DNA of 64,000 nucleotides from a virus: positions 64,001-128,000 of IMG/VR virus record IMGVR_UViG_3300008448_000002; one strand, written 5' to 3'. The notes below the pieces were generated by a model that did no database searches, was not told the DNA's origin, and saw nothing but the letters and a program-made list of their open reading frames with translations. Below, piece after piece: positions 9,873 through 58,851 of this stretch. The position numbers and the translations under genes are program-made. The stretch's first letter is position 1. Each line of letters begins with the position of its first letter.

Positions 9873-11270
9873 ATGTCAAACATGAGTTATTTCTATGATG
9901 GGCAATTAAGAAGATATTTAACACAGTTCATACGCATGTTCAGTGAGTTTCAAGTTGCGAATGGATATAATCCCGATGGTACACCAATTTTAAAAACCAT
10001 TCCTATAAAAATGGCAATGACAAATAAGAATGTTGCCAGTATCATCGGAAATAATAGTGAAACAACCATAAATGCGACACCACAAATGAGTGTTTACATA
10101 GAAGGTATAACATTATCACCAGAGAGGCGGCAGACACCCAATCATACAAGTCAAGTAAGTGTTACTGAAAGAAGAATTGACGAAAGTGGTAATTATACAT
10201 CAGAAATTGGTAGAAGCTATAGTATAGACCGATACATGCCTGTTCCTTATGATTTAACTATGAAATTGGATATATGGACTAATAATGAAAGTCAAAAGCA
10301 TCAAATATTAGAACAGATATTGACTTTATTTAATCCAAGTCTTGATTTACAAACGGGAACTAATCCTATTGATTGGAGTAGTTTGACAGTTGTAGAATTA
10401 ACCGATATTAATTGGAGTAGTCGTTCGATACCCGTAGGGAGTGATATTGAGATTGATGTTTCCTCATTAAGTTTCAAAATACCCATTTTCATCAATCCAC
10501 CAGTAAAAGTTAAAAATCAACAGATTATACAACAAATTGTCACAAATATTCTTGCGAGTAGCAATATACCCGAAAAAGGTGAAAATGACGATATTATATT
10601 AGACTCCAATGATTTTATATCAAGACAGATTGTTACACCAGGAAATCATAATATACGAGTGGTTGGCGATACTATCACTTTATTAGGACAAAACGGTTCT
10701 GAAAGAGATGCGAATGGTGATTTATATAGTTGGAAAAATCTCTTAGATTATTATAGTGTATTAAGACCATCTGTGAGTCAATTAAGGTTATTGACAGGGA
10801 ATGATTCGGAAAACTATTCTGGTTCAATCATCGGCAAGATTGATTTTCATCCTAGCAATGAAAATCAATTAACATGGATTATTGATATTGATACTTTGCC
10901 ACAGAATACCATTTTACCTATAACAGCTATTATAAATCCCACTAAATCACATCCTTTAAGTGGATTAACCTTACCTTTAAATAATACTCAAACATACAGA
11001 TATCTGTTACTAGAAGATATTCCGAATAATAGTGCGGCATGGTATAATGGTTCAACATATTTTACGGCAAAAGAAAACGATATTATACAAATATCGTACA
11101 GTGTATCTTTTGGTTGGGTGGCATCAGTATTGTTTAACTCTTTCAATAACAATACAATACAATATGTTAAGAATAATTTTGATAATAAACAGCTAAAATG
11201 GAATGGTGAAAGTTGGTTATTTGCGATTGATGGCGAGTACAATCCAGGATTTTGGAAAATCAATTTATAA
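9873..11270 (+). CDS. gp15: Tail sheath stabiliser/tail completion protein (T4 gp15-like)
   Basis: YFYDGQLRRYLTQFIRMFS, MPVPYDLTMKLDIWT.N..QKHQILEQILTLFNPSL. Confidence 0.85.
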   Translation: MSNMSYFYDGQLRRYLTQFIRMFSEFQVANGYNPDGTPILKTIPIKMAMTNKNVASIIGNNSETTINATPQMSVYIEGITLSPERRQTPNHTSQVSVTERRIDESGNYTSEIGRSYSIDRYMPVPYDLTMKLDIWTNNESQKHQILEQILTLFNPSLDLQTGTNPIDWSSLTVVELTDINWSSRSIPVGSDIEIDVSSLSFKIPIFINPPVKVKNQQIIQQIVTNILASSNIPEKGENDDIILDSNDFISRQIVTPGNHNIRVVGDTITLLGQNGSERDANGDLYSWKNLLDYYSVLRPSVSQLRLLTGNDSENYSGSIIGKIDFHPSNENQLTWIIDIDTLPQNTILPITAIINPTKSHPLSGLTLPLNNTQTYRYLLLEDIPNNSAAWYNGSTYFTAKENDIIQISYSVSFGWVASVLFNSFNNNTIQYVKNNFDNKQLKWNGESWLFAIDGEYNPGFWKINL

Positions 11271-11328
11271 TAATACTTGACATTTTTAAAATTACTGATA
11301 AATATGGTAAAGTATAAAGGATTTTAAG

Positions 11329-11799
11329 ATGTCAGAAAAAAATACAATTCCCGTTTTCGTTTATGGAACTTTAAGAAAAGGCTCAACTGCCAATCATTTT
11401 TTAGCAGATGCCACTTATCTTGGTGAGGATACCACAAAACAAAAATCATTTGATATGGTTGATTTGTACAGTAGTTCAACGAGTAGTTTTCCTGGTGTTG
11501 TAAAAACTGGTAAGTTTGGCATCGAAGGTGATGTGTATCTTGTTAATGATGATACCCTGTCCATGTTAGATGATTATGAATCAAACGGCTCATTATACAA
11601 CCGAGAATTAATAGAATTGAGTGGATTTAAAGACAAAGCATGGATTTATTTTTTCAACTTGGCGCGATTTGAAAGAAACTTTAAAGTATTAGACTGGTAT
11701 GAGTCTGAAAGAATATCCCATGAAAATAACACGTTAGTATGGGAAGCAAAATCTTTAAAGAATGTAAAACCATTTAGACCAAGTGTTAGAAATATTTAA
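11329..11799 (+). CDS. Gamma-glutamylcyclotransferase (GGCT/AIG2-like) family protein
   Basis: VFVYGTLRKG..NHFL, IEGDVYLV, LDDYE...LYNR. Confidence 0.85.
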   Translation: MSEKNTIPVFVYGTLRKGSTANHFLADATYLGEDTTKQKSFDMVDLYSSSTSSFPGVVKTGKFGIEGDVYLVNDDTLSMLDDYESNGSLYNRELIELSGFKDKAWIYFFNLARFERNFKVLDWYESERISHENNTLVWEAKSLKNVKPFRPSVRNI

Positions 11800-11817
11800 A
11801 AAATATTTTATTATTGT

Positions 11818-12339
11818 ATGATATTAAATGTTGCGACAAAAATTACACCGCTAGCACTAGCCAACACGTTTATAGAGCGTCATGGGCGGAAAGTGAATGG
11901 TATACAGCATATGAAGCTACAAAAGCTATGCTATTACGCACATGGCTGGTGGCTTGCTTTACAACCTGAACCGTCCGAACCGTTTCTGACGGAGCGACCG
12001 CAAGTATGGAAATATGGTCCCGTTTTTAATTCGCTTTACAATGTTCTTAAACCCTTTGGTAAGCGTCCGATTAAAGAACCAAAATCGGATAATCCATTCG
12101 TTACACCTGATGTTGTTCAAAATGCTGAAGTCATTAAGTTGATTGATTGGATATGGAATAGATATGGGCAATATACAGCAGAAACACTATCTGACATGAC
12201 CCACGAAGAAGGCACACCTTGGAGAAATATTGCTAAGGAAAATCACTACAGAGTTAGGCGTGACTTACCTATTGATAACAGGCGTGTAAAAGATTATTTC
12301 AACAGCGAATACAAAAAATTGGCACCCTCAGCAACATGA
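11818..12339 (+). CDS. Panacea/SocA-family (DUF4065) antitoxin, with no toxin partner adjacent
   Basis: ANTFI, MKLQKLCYYAHGW, QVWKYGPV..LY, L..IW..YG.YTA..LSDMTH.EGTPW. Confidence 0.9.
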   Translation: MILNVATKITPLALANTFIERHGRKVNGIQHMKLQKLCYYAHGWWLALQPEPSEPFLTERPQVWKYGPVFNSLYNVLKPFGKRPIKEPKSDNPFVTPDVVQNAEVIKLIDWIWNRYGQYTAETLSDMTHEEGTPWRNIAKENHYRVRRDLPIDNRRVKDYFNSEYKKLAPSAT

Positions 12340-12410
12340 ATGAAATTATATATACTTTACAAACCCATAGCTAAAATTTTACTAAATAATAATTAAAGGA
12401 GGCTTTAATT

Positions 12411-12542
12411 ATGAATGAAGAAAATATGGCGGATGGCGAGGAAGAACGTATATTTTATTTCGATGCGAGTGATTTTGAACGAAGCCAAGAACGAATGGTA
12501 GCGTTATCTTGTTTAGCCAAACATAATCAAGGGAGCAATTAA
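12411..12542 (+). CDS. 43-aa mini-protein with a weak portal-clip-like motif
   Basis: Manual translation: MNEENMADGEEERIFYFDASDFERSQERMVALSCLAKHNQGSN*. Strong SD AAGGAGG at 12396-12402. ERIFYFD resembles portal ERRVFYID. Confidence 0.6.
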   Translation: MNEENMADGEEERIFYFDASDFERSQERMVALSCLAKHNQGSN

Positions 12543-12544
12543 GT

Positions 12545-12721
12545 ATGACTAATTTAGAAGAATTAATTAACAGCGGTAAAGTAAAGAAAACTCGTTGTAA
12601 TATTACTGGAAAAGTAACTTATGAGATTAACCTTAAACATATGTCTACAAGTAAATGCGATGAATATATAACACGAGTCAAGAATGAAATGAAAAAACAC
12701 AAAAATAAAGAAAGAATGTAA
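12545..12721 (+). CDS. 58-aa mini-protein with a portal-clip-like motif
   Basis: Manual translation: MTNLEELINSGKVKKTRCNITGKVTYEINLKHMSTSKCDEYITRVKNEMKKHKNKERM*. GGGAG SD. Shares K......RVKNE with portal KAQQWVERVKNE. Confidence 0.7.
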   Translation: MTNLEELINSGKVKKTRCNITGKVTYEINLKHMSTSKCDEYITRVKNEMKKHKNKERM

Positions 12722-12722
12722 T

Positions 12723-12848
12723 ATGGATACAGAACATACAGAAATAGGTGAAGAAATAATTCTAAATATTGATACAAGTAATATGACAGATGAACAGGCG
12801 AATGATTTACTCAAAAGAATTAAAGATATTGTTTACGGAATAGAATAA
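12723..12848 (+). CDS. 41-aa mini-protein with a portal-clip-like motif
   Basis: Manual translation: MDTEHTEIGEEIILNIDTSNMTDEQANDLLKRIKDIVYGIE*. IDTSNM..EQA..LLKRIK has the strand-turn-helix pattern of the portal clip. Confidence 0.65.
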   Translation: MDTEHTEIGEEIILNIDTSNMTDEQANDLLKRIKDIVYGIE

Positions 12849-12878
12849 TTAACAAAAAGTAATGAAAGAATAAAGAAT

Positions 12879-13148
12879 ATGAGAATAACACAAGAAACTA
12901 GAATCGAGGCATTAAAACTCGCTATTGAGGCGCATAAAACCTTACCGCCAAGTGTAATTGTAGATGCGGCGAAGGTCTTTGAACAGTATATTACTGGATA
13001 TGATTCGCTAACCGATGAAGAAAAAGATGCTATACTTATCAAAAGAATACAAAAAGCACAAGAAAGAAAAATAATTCATGTTGAAGTTGGTGAAATGTCG
13101 CCCCATAAAGCAGAAAATTATATCGAAAATATTAAAAAGAATAGTTGA
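12879..13148 (+). CDS. 89-aa protein: small helical N-domain fused to a portal-clip homolog
   Basis: Residues 50-86 (DAILIKRIQKAQERKIIHVEVGEMSPHKAENYIENIK) versus portal residues 281-317 (DAILIYRIQRAPERRVFYIDVGDQPPHKAQQWVERVK): 19/37 identical. Confidence 0.85.
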   Translation: MRITQETRIEALKLAIEAHKTLPPSVIVDAAKVFEQYITGYDSLTDEEKDAILIKRIQKAQERKIIHVEVGEMSPHKAENYIENIKKNS

Positions 13149-13182
13149 CATTTGATATAATTTCTGTTAATTTATATAAATA
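13145..13182 (+). promoter_or_regulatory. Dual promoter: sigma70-type (TTGACA-17-TAATTT with extended TG) plus T4-late-type TATAAATA
   Basis: TTGACA 13145-13150, TG 13165-13166, TAATTT 13168-13173, TATAAATA 13175-13182. No ORF downstream until 14551. Confidence 0.65.
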
Positions 13183-13980
13183 ATACTAGCGATTAATTTA
13201 ACTCATATTATAACTCAAAGAATTTCCCTCGTTTATTAATTAAGTTTGACATGCGGAACACCTGACGCAGCGTTGTAAGTCTATTAAGGGGCTAGACGAA
13301 TGGAAGCGACTACTATTACGCCCTTAGCGGGATACCGTAACAGTACAGAGTGCCATTTCCCGTGAAAAGGAAGAAAGACTCCGTTCATAAATGGATAGCT
13401 ATGTTTACTTAGTTTATTGGCCATTTATGATTTTGTAATTAAAAGTATTGCATTTATCATAAATCGGTAACATAAAAGTCGGCAGTACTATAAAATCACT
13501 CAACTGACTCCTTAATTGGAGAGGAATTGATGCTGCTTAAAGATTCTTGATTAGAATCTAATTTTCAAAAGAATTGTAATTATAAGAATTAGATATGTAG
13601 GATAAGGAAAATTAAGTTCTAAATCAGGGGAACATAGAATACTGTTGTGTTATGAATAAAGAGTATGCTCTGTCTGTGAAGTTATTGACAACATACAACA
13701 AAAATAGGCTTCTGCTGGAAGTTTGTTGGTCTATTTTTGTACCGCCCTAGAATGACGAGAGTTGTTCGGAACAAGTGTTAAAATTAGGTATACGGAGGGC
13801 CGCCTAGCAAGAAGAAACTTGTACACTAACAATTAATATTTCCAGAAGACGTGATAAAAAATGTTTTAAATGTTCCCTCTACATCTGTTATCGGCACTTT
13901 ATTGTGTTTTAGGCAGGTGTAGGGGGAAAAGACGTGCGCTACGCGCAAGAAAGCAAGAAAACCTAGTTTGGGGGGGGGGT
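13183..13980 (+). ncRNA. Candidate large structured non-coding RNA (possible replication primer RNA)
   Basis: No ORF of 60 aa or more. Stems at 13385-94/13421-30 (10 bp), 13541-47/13553-59, 13698-709/13729-40 (12 bp, 1 G.U), 13762-66/13770-74 and 13873-87/13914-28 (15 bp, 2 G.U). The wobbles work only on the + strand. Ends at a G10 run. Confidence 0.5.
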
Positions 13981-14456
13981 GATGTAGTAAGAATGCCTTG
14001 TATTAGTTGATTATTAGAAGTAATGAATTAAATTGATAAATTAAATAAAAACTTACCAAGTAGACCTGATGATTAAATAAAAACAAATTTATATAAAATA
14101 TATACTTTAAAATAACTCGCACTGATATATCACAAATTAACTAATATAAATTAATTACCTGATGTATATAAATTAACTTAAAGTAATTGCCATGTAAGGT
14201 AGCGTGACACGGCTTGCGCCATGCCACTCACAAGTTGTAAGTTAGATTGCTTCGGCTAACGCCTCGCCCTAACTTACAACTTAATATTTTCTTTATTGAA
14301 TTAATTTAATAAGTAATTAAAATAAACATATAAAAATACTCTTAGAACAAGATTGAGTAATGGTAAAAGTAATTAACAAGTAAGAAGGAGGGCGTAAGCC
14401 AGACTGAATTACTTGTTAATTAAGAGAGGTGCGAGGTCGTAGACCGAGTAGCTCGC
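13935..14456. other. Cluster of GC-rich GNA/GNNA mini-hairpins and two 14-bp inverted repeats around AT-rich DNA; putative replication origin
   Basis: TGCGC-TAC-GCGCA (13935-47); GTGGCATGGC-GCAA-GCCGTGTCAC on the minus strand (14204-27); 14-bp IR 14232-45/14269-82; 14-bp IR 14370-83/14409-22 enclosing GGC-GTAA-GCC; GGTC-GTA-GACC (14435-45). Confidence 0.55.
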
Positions 14457-14550
14457 TAGAACAGATTAACTAAGAAATTATGAATATAACCTGAAAATCA
14501 CTTAAGGACATCTATGTCCAGATTTCAATCAAGTTATAAATATATGTAGC

Positions 14551-17500
14551 ATGACAAATAACACATATCACCTATCTGTAAATAATTCAAATATAGCTGA
14601 AATAAATTCAGGTGGAGAAATATACGAATTAATAACAAGTAATGGATTCCAATTAAAGACATATGAACATATACCCAATGTACTATCATTTACCTCTAGT
14701 GATTCTATAAGAAAAGAAATATTCGACAAGTCATATATAAAATACAAAACAGATGAAATATTTTTTAATCTCAATTCTGTTGTACTCAAGTTTAAAAAGA
14801 AATACTCATGGGGTCTTGACAGAATTGGCAAAAGAAACCCATTATTACAAAAGAAATACTTTGGAACGGAAACGGGTAAAGGAGTAAATCTATTTGCCAT
14901 TGATTCGGGTGTGTTCCATCAACATGATTCTGTTAATAAAAAAATAAATCTCACATTCGCATATGATGCGTTTTTTGATAATAATGATGTGAATTTTATA
15001 CTTCCATTTAACAATAATTCCTACATTGATTCGCATGGTACAGAAATGGCGAGTATTATACTTGATGGCGATTTTGGTACGACATCTAATGTGAATTATA
15101 TTCCTGTTCGTATTTTTAATGATATTGGTATTGCCTCATTGTCGGATTTGTTAGATTCTTGTAACCATATTATTGATACTCATTTATCTATAAACGTATC
15201 AACTCCTTTTGGTAACTCATTATATAAACCGTCTATTGTTAATATGCCATTCAGTACAAAAAATAAGGCATTGTTACTAGATGATGTTATGTCTGCTTTA
15301 TTGGCAAATAATATTCATGTTGTTACGAGTTCTGGTAATGATAATGATGATGCTTATAATTATAGTCCTCAATCTGCTGGTGTATCAAGAAATAAAGTTT
15401 TAATCAGTGGTAACACATACAGAGTAGACACAAGTATTAATTATACAAAAAAGCCTATTGTGGTAGGGGGCTGCGATAACCCAAGTATAGAAATCATTCA
15501 AAAAGATAAAGTATGGAAAGAAGATAATTTTAATGGGTCAAATTGGGGAGAGTTTGTTGATATACTGTGTCCCGCCAAGGATATATTAGTAGGAAGTTTA
15601 TCTTTTTCTGGTTCAAATTGGAATAATTCTATAAGGAATTATTATACATATAAATCTGGTACAAGCTATAGTAGTGCCTTTTGCTGTGGTATTTTGGCAA
15701 TGTATTTACAAAAAGAAAAAAATCTCACAACAACGCAATTATACAATAAATTATTAAGACGTTCAACCATAGGAAGTTTAGAGATAGATGATTTATCTAA
15801 TTTAAGAGATAATGAACAGAATGATATATTTATTAATCCTGTTGTTGTCACACCAAACAGAATAGGGTATATTTGGTATACGCCTATTTTGATTAACTTT
15901 GATACAATTAATACAATTATAGTTGATGAAAATACAGAAAATGATATTAAAATAACAGCGATATCAACTGATAGTTTTAATGAAAAACAAAAAGTTAGCT
16001 TTTTTCTTGGAACAGTAACTTCTCCTATACCAACTTATACCGATTTAAATATAACAGCATTATTCGGCGATATTTATGAAGGTAATGATATATTTGGAAA
16101 CCTTAATATACAAAGTAATTTTGTAACTGAGGATACTGTATCTACCATTACTATTACTGTTGTTGATGGATTTTCGGATGATTATAGACACTTTCAGACT
16201 TTATCCATACCTATCAATATAAAGAATCTTTCTGTTATGCCTACATGGTTATTACCAGTAGAAAGTAATTTGGGTGATATATCACAGGATGATAATATTG
16301 ATATTGTGTTTTCTTGTAGAGATTTAACAGACGGTTCGCCTGTAACATACACTATATTACCGTCAAATGAAGTATTGCCTATTGGATTAAGGTTTCAAAA
16401 TCTAGTAGATGGAACATTCAAGATATTTGGTACTGTTGGGGCATTAGATAAAAAGTTAGAAAAATATGAGTTTTTCATTAGGGCAAAAACATCTGTTGGT
16501 AAATTTTCTGATAAATATTTTTTCTGGAATACTAATATTGTAAATATACCACAAGAGTTTGATACCTTGTGGACAGATACTCTTCCAAGTACAACTGTTA
16601 ATACTAATGTTTACTATAATTTAGGAACATATCCAAAAAACACACCTCTTGGAATAAACTTACTAATTAATTTATTGATTTATAACCCTGATAATGACCC
16701 GTTGATTATAAAATTATTTAAATCACCTGATATTACTACAAGTTTTGGAAAACTACCCCTCGGTTTAAAACTGAATACTGAAAGTAGACGAATTGAAGGC
16801 ATCCCCTCTGTTAGTATTTCTGGTGGCACATATTATTTTAAAATAACATTAGGAGATGGAGAGTTTGTTACAAATGGTTATTTTAGTATAACTATATCTA
16901 ATGATGACATAGGATTAATACAAGACCCCAGTGATATAACATGGACTACCCCCGCTGGATTCATTGGCGAAATATATGAAACGTATCCATCACACCTTAG
17001 TGTTTTGGCTAAAAATAGTGCCAATGGAAGAATACAATATATATTATCAAGTGCCAGTAACCCAATGCCGCAAGGATTAAGCATTGATGCCAATACTGGA
17101 TATATAGTTGGTAATGCTCCCTATGTTTCTGGAACGGCAACATATAGTATAACAGTATCAGCTTACAATGAGTTTGTTTCGGTTGATAGAACATTTACTT
17201 TTACTATTATATCCATATATGATACTCAAAATGTCATAAGTATTGATGTTTTATTAACGGGATTACCTACCAAAGATAGATTAAATCTTGTTAGATTACA
17301 ATCGTTTATAAACAAAAATAATATATTTAGAGAAGACGATGAAAACTTTGGTATTAAACAAGACTTGAGAATGTATCTTGTGGCAGGATTAAATTCTGTT
17401 TCAGATAGTGTAGTTTATGCCAAATTAAAAGATTATCATCAGGATTTATCGGTTAAGTTTGGAAAATTGAATTACCAATCTGTGACAGATACAGTTGGAA

Positions 17501-52906: not shown

Positions 52907-54121
52907 TTACTGGAAGCGAATGTTAGAGCTAATCCCAACAAGACCCAAATAGTCAGCACTGTTTCCAAAACTTGAAACAGTATTTGTAAGCTCTTTGTAC
53001 CCGTAACGTGTCATGAATGAAACGGTAGGTTCAAAGGTTGATGGGTCAATGATAACGCCAGTAGATTGTAGTGGGATATATGGGCAATAGAAAGCGGCAG
53101 CGTCCGTTTCAGTTGTGCCTTTATAACCAACCAATACTGAAGTTGTGTCATTAGCGAATTGGTCAACATAGATTCTCATTGAGTTATTCAAAGTACCAAC
53201 GAACTTTGTGTTAGTTGGAGCATCAAATACACCTTCAGTTGTGCGAGCAAAAGCAGATGTCGTAGCAGATTGAAGAATTGTCAATGCTGTGTTTGATACA
53301 ACTGCCCAGTTAGCGGCACCACGTCTTGTGCGTTGAGCAACGAGGTTAGCTTGACGGTTAATTAATGTTGCCAAAGCAGCATGTTCATCACCAACAAAAG
53401 TTGCTGTACCAGAAATGTTGTTTTGGTCATAGATTGCCGTAGGTGAACCAGGAAGAGCACGGAGTGATTGTAGAATCTCTTGGTCAATTTCGGCAGTAAT
53501 TTCTTGTGCCAAAACAGCCATGATTTCTTGCTCCATGTCAATACCTTGTTGTGATTGAGCATCTTGAGCAGCTTCAAAAGTCCAACGAGCAGACAGTTTA
53601 CGGCTTTTCGCTTCAACTGTTTCTTTCAGGATTTGAATGCTAAGACCATTACCACCACGTCCTTCAAGGGCAGCAGTAGCAGCACCAGCAGGAGCAGAAA
53701 TTGATTCGTTACCAGAGTAATAACGAGCAATGTCAAATGGAGACATAGCTTCTGTACCAGCCGTTGTGTAACCAGCACCAGATGCGGGAACGGTGTTAGA
53801 ATAACGGAAACGCAAAGTATGAATTTGACCAACTGGACCAGTCATAGGTTGTACACCGATGATTTCGTTAGCAATTACGGTTGGCATTACACGTCTCAAT
53901 ACAGGGAGAATTACCTTGTTGAGTACAGCAATGTTACCAGAAGATGTTGCGCCAGCAGTTGCTTGCTCCATCAGGCTTCTTTTTGTATTTTCAAGAAGGG
54001 TTTCCATAATTTGTTTTTTAGAACTATTTTTAGAACCATCTTGGTTGTGTGTTAAGTCACGACCTTCAAGCAATTTTTCTTTTGCCAGCGTCCATGTATT
54101 TCCTTCAAATAATTTAGACAT
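52907..54121 (-). CDS. gp23: Major capsid protein (T4 gp23-like)
   Basis: LPVLRRVMPTVIANEIIGVQPMTGPVGQIHTLR, EITAEIDQEIL, AAFYCPYIPL, MTRYG; GC-richer optimised codons. Confidence 0.97.
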   Translation of the reverse strand: MSKLFEGNTWTLAKEKLLEGRDLTHNQDGSKNSSKKQIMETLLENTKRSLMEQATAGATSSGNIAVLNKVILPVLRRVMPTVIANEIIGVQPMTGPVGQIHTLRFRYSNTVPASGAGYTTAGTEAMSPFDIARYYSGNESISAPAGAATAALEGRGGNGLSIQILKETVEAKSRKLSARWTFEAAQDAQSQQGIDMEQEIMAVLAQEITAEIDQEILQSLRALPGSPTAIYDQNNISGTATFVGDEHAALATLINRQANLVAQRTRRGAANWAVVSNTALTILQSATTSAFARTTEGVFDAPTNTKFVGTLNNSMRIYVDQFANDTTSVLVGYKGTTETDAAAFYCPYIPLQSTGVIIDPSTFEPTVSFMTRYGYKELTNTVSSFGNSADYLGLVGISSNIRFQ

Positions 54122-54145
54122 AATTTTATCCTTTCGTCTTTATAA

Positions 54146-55366
54146 TTATTGTTTGTTAATTCCAGCCAAACGAGCAATATCGAATATCACATCATTTTGG
54201 TCAGAATATTCTTGTGATTCTTCTAAGATTACTTTTTTGTTACCTGTCATCGCTGACATCTTGGAAGATTTAGTTTCATTCAACTGTTGTTTTAATGGCT
54301 TCATTTCGCCAATAACACCAGGTAAATACTTATTGAAAGACTCTTGTAATCTTGGTGTTGATACACCTTCGAGTAATCTTCCCATAATTTCTTGTTTGTC
54401 TCTTGGTAGGTTTACGAGCAAGGTGTTGAGAGTTTTTTCTCTTGTTGCTTTTTCTTCTACGATACCAACTTTGTGTTTAACACTTTCATACAGAGTCTTG
54501 TTTTTGTTCAATTCATTGATTGATTCCGCAAGCTGTTTTTTTGTTTCGGTAAGTTCTTTAAACATTTTTTTAGTTTGGGTAGATTCACTAAGATTAGAAC
54601 CCAAAAACTCATGATAAAATGTTTCATAGATTCTTTTTCCGAGTTTATTTTCTTTAGCTACTTGAATATCTTCTTTCAATTGACCCAATTCTTTTTCCAA
54701 GGTTGATTGAATTGTTTGTTCAACAAGTGGAGCAGCTCTTTTGATAAAATTGTCTTTTAGTTCGGCAAGTTTTTCTTTGCTTTCTTTGACAATTCTTACT
54801 TTTGTATTGGCAAGGTCTTTTACATCTTCATGAAGCTCTGTAATTTCTTTTTGTAATTGCTCAAGAATGAATCCTTCAAACTTTTGAATTTTTTTGTTGT
54901 ATTCTTCTTTAAGTTGTTTAATTTCTTCTTGTTTTTCAATATGAAGCTGTTTTTGGTCTTCTTTGAGTTCAGTCAATTCTTTTTGTAATTCATCGGTAAT
55001 GAAGGTTTCAATCAAACTTGTATGACTTTTAATTTTATCATTGTATTGTTTTCTTGATTCTTGAATAGTATTTGTTAATTTCACTCTTGCTTCTTTGAGT
55101 TTATTAACTTCTTCTATTGACTCTTTTGCCTGTTCTGTGATAACATCAGTAATCATGGAGTTCATAGCCTCTACAATTCTTTCCTTATCGTGTTCAAACT
55201 TTGTAGAAAACTCGCGTCTGATGCTTTCTTCAAGTGCTTGGCGCATGTCCGTGCGTTCTTCATCAAGTTTTTCTTGTAGGGCTTGTTTTAATTCTACTTT
55301 TGTCTCTTCATTTAAGAGGTCTGACTGTAGTAATTCAAATATTTTGTTACTCATTTTTAACTCCAA
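54146..55366 (-). CDS. Prohead scaffold protein (gp22-like)
   Basis: Long coiled coil between protease and MCP; IRREFSTKFEHDK; ends LAGI. Confidence 0.8.
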   Translation of the reverse strand: MELKMSNKIFELLQSDLLNEETKVELKQALQEKLDEERTDMRQALEESIRREFSTKFEHDKERIVEAMNSMITDVITEQAKESIEEVNKLKEARVKLTNTIQESRKQYNDKIKSHTSLIETFITDELQKELTELKEDQKQLHIEKQEEIKQLKEEYNKKIQKFEGFILEQLQKEITELHEDVKDLANTKVRIVKESKEKLAELKDNFIKRAAPLVEQTIQSTLEKELGQLKEDIQVAKENKLGKRIYETFYHEFLGSNLSESTQTKKMFKELTETKKQLAESINELNKNKTLYESVKHKVGIVEEKATREKTLNTLLVNLPRDKQEIMGRLLEGVSTPRLQESFNKYLPGVIGEMKPLKQQLNETKSSKMSAMTGNKKVILEESQEYSDQNDVIFDIARLAGINKQ

Positions 55367-57104: not shown

Positions 57105-58851
57105 CTTCGACTCTTTCTGGTTCAGTTAAAGATGTTCCACTACCTAATGGACTTTCTGAACCTTCTTCTCTATCATTATTTATATCTTCTTCGTCTTCTT
57201 CTTGATTTTCATCATCTTGTTCTGCCTTAATACCAATTGAACTTAATTTTGTATTATCATCTGATTCGATGGATTCCTCACTAAACTTATCTGGATTTTC
57301 TTCTTTCAACAGAATTTCATTTTCTGTTATTTCTTCTGTTGTTAATCCGAGGTAACGTTTTAGGATGAATCGTTTACTCAAATAAGGGACATCCGATAAT
57401 GGTGTAAATACATTGATTTGCGCCGTATCTCTTTCAATTTGAGCAAATTGTCTAAAGTTTTGTGGAGGAGTAAATTCCAATTCAAACGTATTAGAGGAAA
57501 TATTGAATCCTCTTTTTTTAACAAATAATTTAAATTCTTGGTCAAATACATCAGAAATTGTCTTTTGTATTCTTTGGCAATATTTTGAAAATCTAAATTC
57601 TTGTATATAAGCTGTGCCAACTCTACCATCGGTAACAGCCTGTGTACTATCTTCTGGGCCAGTTGGAAGATAACTTGATGGTACTCTTAATCCCCTAATT
57701 AATTTATTATTGAAAAACTTTAAATCATCAATCTGTCCAAGATTTTCTCCACCTGGTAATGTTTCAACTTTACTTCCTCTACCAGATGTAGTAACTGGAA
57801 AGAAAAAATCTTCCAGCATTGACATCGGATTATAAGATGAATCAACTACGTTTCCGTTCTGTCCATTTCTGGATGGTATTCTTCTTTGATGTACTTCATT
57901 TTTAACTCTTTCAACCCATTGTTGTGCCTTATGGGGTGGTTGGTCGCCAACATCAATATAAAAGACTCTTCTTTCTGGTGCCCGTTGTATACGATAAATT
58001 AGGATAGCATCTTCTAATAATTCTTTTTGTTTATATACTTTAAATACTGGTTCTAGTACAGATACGCCAAACGGCCACGATGCGTCTAAACCTTCACTTA
58101 AACTTAAATGTACAAAGTGTGTTGAATCTATGGCAAACACATTGGTGCCATTTTGATTAAATCTACTAGTTCTGTTTCCCGAATAGGTGTTATTGTTGTT
58201 GTAACTATTTTGATTAAATGTGGTTGATAATCCATTCCCTCTATCCAGCGAACTAACTCCATCACCCACTAAGTTAGTACCAAATGTACTTGGATTAGTC
58301 GCCGTATCAGCTACAAAATTAAAATCAACATCTCTTACGACATAATGTGTGATTTCTTTTCCTTTTCCTTCGTTTACAAATATTTTTTGTACTTTGGAAG
58401 GTTCTACCCAGAACCATTCAAAGGTATCTGGATTTCTAATGAAAAATTGGTCGCCGTATTTTAATGTATTTCTAACAATTCTCCATATCTTCTTACGGAA
58501 ACTATTTAAACTGTACCATTGTTGTAAAGTTGTTTTTAATATTTGTACTTCGGCTTCTGATGGGTTATATCCTTTATAATCAATAGTGAAACACATACCA
58601 GAATCATCGTCTGGCTGAGTACAAAAATCACTAATTGTATCTAATGCTGCGTTAATTTCAGGGTCTTGGTCCATTGTATCATATTGACCATAGCGTTCTA
58701 TACGATACGGATGCCCAGCATACACATCTGGTAAATAATTTGTTCTTTCTGATTTATTCGCGGGTTTATCGGGTATTCTTACATCTTTACCAATTTCCCT
58801 ATTTAATCTTGTGTTTTTGTCAACAACGGTAAAATGTTTGGTCCAACTCAT
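57097..58851 (-). CDS. gp20: Portal protein (T4 gp20-like)
   Basis: MDQDPEINAALD, EDAILIYRIQRAPERRVFYIDVG, SMLEDFFFP, RGSKVETLPGGENLGQIDDLKFF, EFRFSKY. Confidence 0.97.
   Translation of the reverse strand: MSWTKHFTVVDKNTRLNREIGKDVRIPDKPANKSERTNYLPDVYAGHPYRIERYGQYDTMDQDPEINAALDTISDFCTQPDDDSGMCFTIDYKGYNPSEAEVQILKTTLQQWYSLNSFRKKIWRIVRNTLKYGDQFFIRNPDTFEWFWVEPSKVQKIFVNEGKGKEITHYVVRDVDFNFVADTATNPSTFGTNLVGDGVSSLDRGNGLSTTFNQNSYNNNNTYSGNRTSRFNQNGTNVFAIDSTHFVHLSLSEGLDASWPFGVSVLEPVFKVYKQKELLEDAILIYRIQRAPERRVFYIDVGDQPPHKAQQWVERVKNEVHQRRIPSRNGQNGNVVDSSYNPMSMLEDFFFPVTTSGRGSKVETLPGGENLGQIDDLKFFNNKLIRGLRVPSSYLPTGPEDSTQAVTDGRVGTAYIQEFRFSKYCQRIQKTISDVFDQEFKLFVKKRGFNISSNTFELEFTPPQNFRQFAQIERDTAQINVFTPLSDVPYLSKRFILKRYLGLTTEEITENEILLKEENPDKFSEESIESDDNTKLSSIGIKAEQDDENQEEDEEDINNDREEGSESPLGSGTSLTEPERVEDE

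Follow-up and report, generated by a model that had tools for sequence, protein, structure and literature searches.

Results

Organization of the Islet and the ORF Array

Four consecutive small ORFs (ORF1–4) were found in the window analysed here, a stretch of 64,000 nucleotides that corresponds to bases 64001–128000 of an IMG/VR virus record (194,657 bp, ~51% complete, 32% G+C) from an uncultured lake-water jumbo phage. An earlier note on this DNA had listed four back-to-back ORFs of 43, 58, 41, and 89 aa on the + strand at 12411–13148, and both coordinates and lengths were reproduced; two Shine-Dalgarno sites, the number given in the note, were found (AAGGAGG before ORF1 and GGGAG before ORF2). 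The array was shown to be the end of a same-strand islet consisting of a GGACT-like gene, a gene containing a Panacea antitoxin domain and the four ORFs (Table 1). This islet is flanked by genes for a gp15-like tail sheath stabiliser and for a 1274-aa protein, the latter with a PHROG labelled protease as its only family match, and an ORF-free block comes after the array.

Table 1. Positions and properties of the array genes, their islet neighbours and the portal gene in the window.
Feature	Position (nt)	Strand	Properties
GGACT/AIG2-like gamma-glutamyl cyclotransferase, first gene of the islet	11329..11799	+	156 aa; Pfam PF06094, E = 2.3e-20
Panacea (SocA-like antitoxin) domain protein	11818..12339	+	173 aa; Pfam PF13274, E = 1.6e-17
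ORF1	12411..12542	+	43 aa, acidic, net charge -6.4; weakest member
ORF1 strand-tip-helix (aa 10-37)	12438-12521	+	EERIFYFDASDF, matching portal PERRVFYIDVGD
ORF2	12545..12721	+	58 aa, basic, net charge +6.7; begins 2 nt past the ORF1 stop
ORF2 strand-tip-helix (aa 21-48)	12605-12688	+	
ORF3	12723..12848	+	41 aa, acidic, net charge -8.4; begins 1 nt past the ORF2 stop
ORF3 strand-tip-helix (aa 9-36)	12747-12830	+	
ORF4	12879..13148	+	89 aa, net charge -1.2; diverged copy of portal aa ~238-319
ORF4 core motif (aa 61-88)	13059-13142	+	tip GEMSPHK
T4-type portal gene, parent of the copied segment	57097..58851	-	584 aa; Pfam Portal_T4, E = 1.3e-111
Portal clip segment (aa 280-317)	57901-58014	-	within the portal gene

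A codon-usage score trained on the 79 long ORFs of the genome, in which long genes score 0.33 ± 0.08, gave positive values (0.17–0.55 bits per codon) for all four ORFs, and in each case solely in the annotated frame. Besides the very short gaps between ORF1, ORF2, and ORF3, a gap of 30 nt separates ORF3 from ORF4. Codon usage, Shine-Dalgarno sites and the spacing of 1–2 nt show that the four ORFs are genuine coding genes whose frames have been kept open. Identical copies of parts of the array were present in metagenome contigs from three studies, which shows that the array is not an artefact. ORF1, ORF3, and ORF4 lie in a common reading frame, and in the region 12846–12881 only one TAA and ten sense codons lie between ORF3 and ORF4; read-through of this stop would fuse them. 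Neither the T4-type late promoter TATAAATA immediately upstream of ORF1 nor a convincing sigma-70-like site directly upstream of it was found. No contig from a freshwater RNA library covered the four ORFs, and this library is uninformative on their expression.

A contig of a relative from the freshwater RNA library matched the GGACT gene with 9 differences in 255 nt and then departed from the window at 11806, which shows that relatives differ in the islet; in this relative, the Panacea gene is replaced or absent, and the array may be too. A 784-nt freshwater metatranscriptome contig matched the ORF-free block at 13194–13951 nearly end to end, and its 60 substitutions and 14 gaps indicate that it also comes from a relative. 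Upstream of 13194, a strong extended -10 promoter-like site (13132–13161) and TATAAATA at 13175 were detected, and a search of 13100–14600 against Rfam gave no family matches even at E ≤ 1. The block is consistent with a discrete RNA of ~760 nt.

The organization of the islet could be that of a PanAT-like module, in which the small ORFs would encode toxins, or cognate partners of another type, for the Panacea protein encoded upstream. Panacea antitoxins pair with very diverse toxins, and the ORFs come immediately after a complete Panacea domain gene of the same orientation. However, the Panacea gene and ORF1 do not overlap but are separated by 71 nt, and the four ORFs are hydrophilic (GRAVY -0.5 to -1.1) and showed neither a match to a toxin family nor a membrane segment. 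As such a module would also leave the homology to the portal described below unexplained, we regard it as very improbable.

Homology of ORF4 to the Portal of the Same Phage

ORF4 had previously been matched to a segment of the phage's own portal. This match was shown to be a real homology (BLASTP of ORF4 aa 49–86 against portal aa 280–317, 19/38 identities, E = 1e-12), but its extent had been underestimated, since tblastn and MAFFT showed ORF4 to be colinear with portal ~238–319, with an 8-residue insert in the stem helix. PHROG 213 (portal) matched ORF4 with E = 2.9e-8. A six-frame Portal_T4 scan of the whole 194.7-kb genome gave exactly two sites, the portal gene and ORF4 (33.9 bits). The portal of this phage showed 52–56% identity to the portals of Agrobacterium phage Atu_ph07 and Sinorhizobium phage Phosso and ~46% to those of Rak2-like jumbo phages.

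Compared to full-length T4-type portals (PF07230; structures 3JA7 and 6UZC), ORF4 scored as a true homologue, with 37.1 bits at Portal_T4 profile positions 192–231 against a curated gathering cut-off of 22.9 bits. The match covers under a tenth of the profile (433 positions) and the full portal architecture is absent: the wing, the crown, the second half of the clip and the tunnel loop are lacking, so that ORF4 cannot form a channel. ORF4 is on this basis classified as a fragment homologue and not as a portal. In an AlphaFold2 model of ORF4 (pLDDT 74), helices were predicted at residues 5–18, 24–42, 46–59, and 75–88, and the strand corresponding to beta1 of the portal clip was left unpaired in the monomer, in keeping with a strand whose pairing requires a partner.

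On DNA level, ORF4 and the portal gene showed 67% identity over 40 codons, with 85% identity at codon position 2 and 52% at position 3, and 6 of the 19 identical residues were encoded by different codons. This agrees with the previous proposal that the peptide rather than the DNA is conserved, and ORF4 is an old copy of a portal segment that has been conserved as protein. The dS was ~0.74 and dN/dS ~0.5, the latter being uninformative on selection over 40 codons.

Relationship of ORF1–3 to the Same Portal Segment

ORF1–3 were found to retain only a strand-tip-helix motif of ~28 residues. They showed no match in Pfam, Portal_T4 included, and BLASTP against the phage's own portal gave E = 0.013 for ORF1, E = 0.007 for ORF2 (portal 297–328) and no hit for ORF3. 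The earlier note had made the array depend on profile matches of these three ORFs, which were obtained. A profile built solely from 32 distinct portal clip segments was used against 1349 six-frame ORFs of the genome and retrieved, in this order, the portal, ORF4 (E = 7.7e-13), ORF2 (0.038), ORF3 (0.15), two other ORFs and ORF1 (1.2), so that ORF2, ORF3, and ORF1 ranked 3rd, 4th, and 7th. With a profile made from proteins outside the genome, ORF4, the portal, ORF2, and ORF3 were the top four of 2387 ORFs, and no further array member was found with it in 194 kb. When each ORF was subjected to 2000 composition-preserving shuffles, the real score was reached by 2, 0, and 0 shuffles of ORF1, ORF2, and ORF3, respectively, with the portal-only profile (p ≤ 0.001) and by 12, 1, and 5 shuffles with the outside profile.

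Pairwise hhalign comparisons to a profile of 30 portals placed the single best match of each of ORF1–3 within portal 291–322 (ORF1, P = 0.0029 at portal 291–304; ORF2, P = 0.003; ORF3, P = 0.0063 at portal 293–320). In addition, MAFFT aligned the four ORFs in register with the portal segment, and ORF2 showed an in-register match to ORF4 (E = 0.007). The strand beta1 was the best conserved part in all four ORFs and the sole recognisable part of ORF1, which itself is barely recognisable. We consider the portal likeness of ORF1–3 to be weak for each ORF singly and significant for the three jointly. No repeats on DNA level were found among the four ORFs. A decayed second portal gene was considered and rejected as the source of the array: no other colinear portal pieces were present in the region 10000–16000, and ORF1–3 repeat one segment and not successive ones. 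The four genes are best interpreted as a small paralogous family of portal origin.

Comparison to the T4 gp20 Clip

The phage portal was aligned with T4 gp20 253–523 (structures 3JA7/6UZC) and ORF4 aa 49–85 with T4 gp20 268–304. The segment copied in ORF4 comprises the end of stem helix alpha5, clip strand beta1, the tip and helix alpha6, which supports the initial reading of the copied part as a clip segment with a strand-turn-helix pattern. In T4 gp20, the stem is formed by residues 255–278 and 359–377 and the clip by residues 279–358; the clip, exposed on the outer side of the capsid, is where gp17 and later the neck attach (PMC4493910). The tip residues N291, M292, R295, and K296 face gp17, packaging is abolished by N291A-M292A and by R295A-K296A, and M292I is unable to start packaging (PMC4493910). 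A synthetic 24-residue gp20 peptide (288–311) was reported to bind gp17 and to inhibit packaging, and the contact between portal and terminase in T4 was described as mainly electrostatic (PMC4493910). The two statements on T4 that the array had first been compared with, namely that the terminase docks on the clip and that a clip peptide inhibits packaging, can both be traced to this publication. In T4, each clip sheet combines a strand of one subunit with two from the adjacent subunit, and this is the sole main-chain contact between subunits (PMC4493910). According to the alignments, the equivalent of gp20 288–311 (tip and alpha6) is present in all four ORFs.

The phage's own portal contains DQ at the equivalents of N291/M292 and HK at those of R295/K296. 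Within its clip segment (aa 280–317), D303, Q304, Q310, and W312 were found at positions that are N, M, M, and F in 69 distinct related portals (99–100% conserved; the first two are N-M in T4 as well). In total, 42 such differences are spread over the portal, of which these are 4, and cultured relatives also vary at the tip. The large terminase gene of this phage is located at 53658–55247 of the genome, on the minus strand. The terminase stretch that was hand-aligned to T4 gp17 325–344 is variable in all lineages and showed no clear pairing with changes of the portal tip. In one related 328-kb phage (L099, G001:C1:26427–30737), the frame of the large terminase was 858–862 aa compared to the usual ~530 aa, and the match began only at query residue 82, which suggests an inserted element or a fusion in the N-terminal part.

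Occurrence of Free-Standing Clip Proteins

Three near-complete genomes of relatives (328–356 kb, 92–96% complete) contained one Portal_T4 site each and no array; the array is dispensable, as these three relatives have no second portal-like gene. When 1.84 billion representative proteins were searched exhaustively with phmmer, only two other free-standing clip proteins were retrieved, P0004 and P0005, in which the same portal segment is likewise found alone in a small non-structural gene. P0004 (249 aa) was located between unrelated genes on a 516-kb metagenomic phage contig and, unlike the array members, keeps the whole clip, whereas P0005 (93 aa) repeats the short motif in one chain, as one short and one long copy, where the array repeats it across genes. 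No relationship between these proteins and the array was detectable past the portal-derived part, and neither forms a four-gene array. P0004 and P0005 were each closest to portals and not to ORF4, which points to repeated selection of the portal segment.

Searches for homologues of P0004 and a word-indexed protein search with ORF4 each found the query alone. A BLASTn search of 11300–13400 against phages gave no match, and scans for related loci that started from ORF4 or from the gp15-like neighbour were likewise negative; the syntenic arrays in related phages that the earlier note had suggested to look for were thus not found by either approach. Besides, tblastn of P0005 and ORF2 against cultured phages gave real portals or noise only, and the ESM Atlas contained no look-alikes at or above 0.9. 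No orthologues of the array genes were found in these searches.

A profile search detected ~45 further small 'Portal_T4' proteins (P0006–P0050; 60–160 aa). The 23 that were examined all carry flanking portal sequence and were rejected as mini-proteins, being frameshifted or truncated real portals; these fragmentary sequences are pieces of jumbo-phage portals, and most of them come from ENA assemblies. Such frameshift fragments are a trap for any count of mini-portal genes that uses Pfam match and length. A 114-aa 'portal protein' CDS of Escherichia phage WPEC3 (PV611058.1) was also rejected, as it is a portal/terminase-like chimera beside a poly-G run and most likely an assembly artefact. The CDS that precedes this chimera (L003:1336–1908) is annotated as 'NUDIX hydrolase' and contains a run of ~24 glycines encoded by poly-G.

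The distribution bears on whether the array could be leftovers of a drifting tandem partial duplication of the portal, or serve an unrelated function by reuse of a convenient strand-helix unit. The array genes are singletons that are absent in relatives, ORF1 has nearly lost its likeness to the portal, and the dN/dS value given above would be compatible with this. However, the 738 nt are filled by four open frames in spite of a genomic G+C content of 32%, with couplings of 1–2 nt and Shine-Dalgarno sites, genome-typical codon usage is found solely in the right frame, and every frame is intact despite an old divergence (67% DNA identity and no DNA repeats). The capture of the portal segment in other phages also argues against leftovers, and we regard this explanation as unlikely.

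Discussion

The array probably functions as a clip mimic of some kind, judging from the sequence comparisons. Part of a T4-type portal gene was copied, and tandem duplication and divergence would then have given rise to the four paralogs. Their products would be soluble, imitate the exposed clip of the portal and compete for the protein that normally docks there. As the copied piece is an exposed docking surface, competitive mimicry is the simplest reading. The first-choice partner would be the large terminase, as for the synthetic gp20 288–311 peptide. Variants that differ in charge would then serve for different terminases, with co-infecting T4-type phages as the most plausible source of these; alternatively, the mimics may time the phage's own packaging. 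Taken as a whole, this explanation, with soluble mimics competing for a clip-binding protein and the terminase as first choice, is put forward tentatively.

The large terminase as partner is likewise a possible rather than a probable assignment, made by analogy with T4. It is favoured by the precedent of the T4 peptide and by the position of M292, which is M in ORF2–4 and in both copies of P0005, L in P0004 and F in ORF1, and thus hydrophobic in seven of seven known free motifs. Since this tip position is exposed, it would be expected to affect docking and not folding. The strong contrast in net charge among the four proteins (Table 1) agrees with the proposal that the ORFs represent a panel of variants, and this wide spread, together with the mainly electrostatic contact in T4, suggests different targets. 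Two findings speak against the terminase. Only ORF4 retains the basic pair R295/K296 (as HK), and ORF2 retains it in part (SK), the corresponding residues being EQ in ORF3 and SQ in ORF1; and the conserved beta1 lies outside the inhibitory peptide of T4 and, in the portal, pairs with the adjacent subunit. The conservation of beta1 fits binding to a portal at least as well as binding to a terminase.

Binding to portal subunits would mean that a free beta1, in ORF4 together with the stem helix, replaces the neighbour on the clip hairpin and thereby caps or poisons ring assembly of a rival's portal or chaperones the phage's own. The sharing of the T4 clip sheet between neighbours, as their only main-chain contact (PMC4493910), the preferential conservation of beta1, down to ORF1 where nothing else is recognisable, and the unpaired beta1 in the monomer model of ORF4 all support such binding. 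It leaves the hydrophobic exposed tip residue of all copies unexplained, however, and such proteins would be unnecessary for assembly, as relatives lack the array. We consider binding to portal subunits to be quite unlikely.

Instead of the packaging machinery, the mini-proteins could act on host immunity by binding portal sensors of the Avs4, Avs11, or SpbK type without activating them, or by masking the clip, so that the portal goes unnoticed. Portal-sensing immunity of these three types is documented (PMC12803255, PMC12642450, PMC13728456), including the sensing of portal proteins by bacterial Avs4 that had been cited when the array was first described; Avs4 recognises portal monomers. A location in a variable accessory islet, adjoining a gene with a Panacea antitoxin domain as a typical neighbour of counter-defence genes, and diversified tandem paralogs as in an arms race would match this role. 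On the other hand, Avs sensors are described as reading whole folds over extended interfaces, for which a 28-residue motif is a poor match, and a fragment with the recognised feature might trigger the sensor instead of blocking it. No such decoy was found in the anti-defence literature searched, and an immune decoy is considered doubtful.

A more specific version of the clip-mimic explanation is that the array is an inter-phage weapon, in which charge-diversified clip tips would occupy the portal-docking site on the packaging motors of co-infecting T4-type phages, and from which the producer would escape by its changed own tip (D303/Q304/Q310/W312). This version is rather improbable, and 'self-immunity' by the changed portal tip is only a lead.

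No description of natural genes of this clip-mimic kind was found in the literature searched, and the earlier note likewise named no described system of this kind. The closest likeness is to the T4 gp20 288–311 peptide. Both the peptide and the mini-proteins are free of the remaining portal, and the mini-proteins cover the equivalent of gp20 ~282–310 (ORF4 ~250–306), tip positions included. In contrast to the peptide, the mini-proteins are natural genes, four in tandem and strongly diverged, and they contain beta1 and, in ORF4, also the stem helix; the basic pair is not retained in ORF1 and ORF3. Ppi, a packaging-interference protein of the phage satellites SaPIs, binds the small terminase of the helper phage. 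The mini-proteins resemble Ppi as small proteins that could block rival packaging by binding to a terminase, but Ppi-type proteins are unrelated in sequence, are not portal mimics, act on the small terminase and come from satellites, whereas the array belongs to a lytic jumbo phage. In eukaryotes, microProteins (e.g., Id and LITTLE ZIPPER) are small proteins derived from one interaction module of a larger protein and act as dominant-negative competitors; here the likeness is in principle only, as they belong to a different domain of life and to different protein families.

In tailed phages, the terminase motor and later the neck must dock on the portal clip. If the explanation of the array as clip mimics is true, natural free-standing copies of the docking tip would be a kind of viral protein that the literature searched does not describe, and these proteins would impersonate the virus's own assembly machine in order to sabotage rivals, to blind portal-watching sensors or to time packaging. 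The four differently charged members would in that case be ready-made probes of the residues that set the specificity between the portal and its partners.
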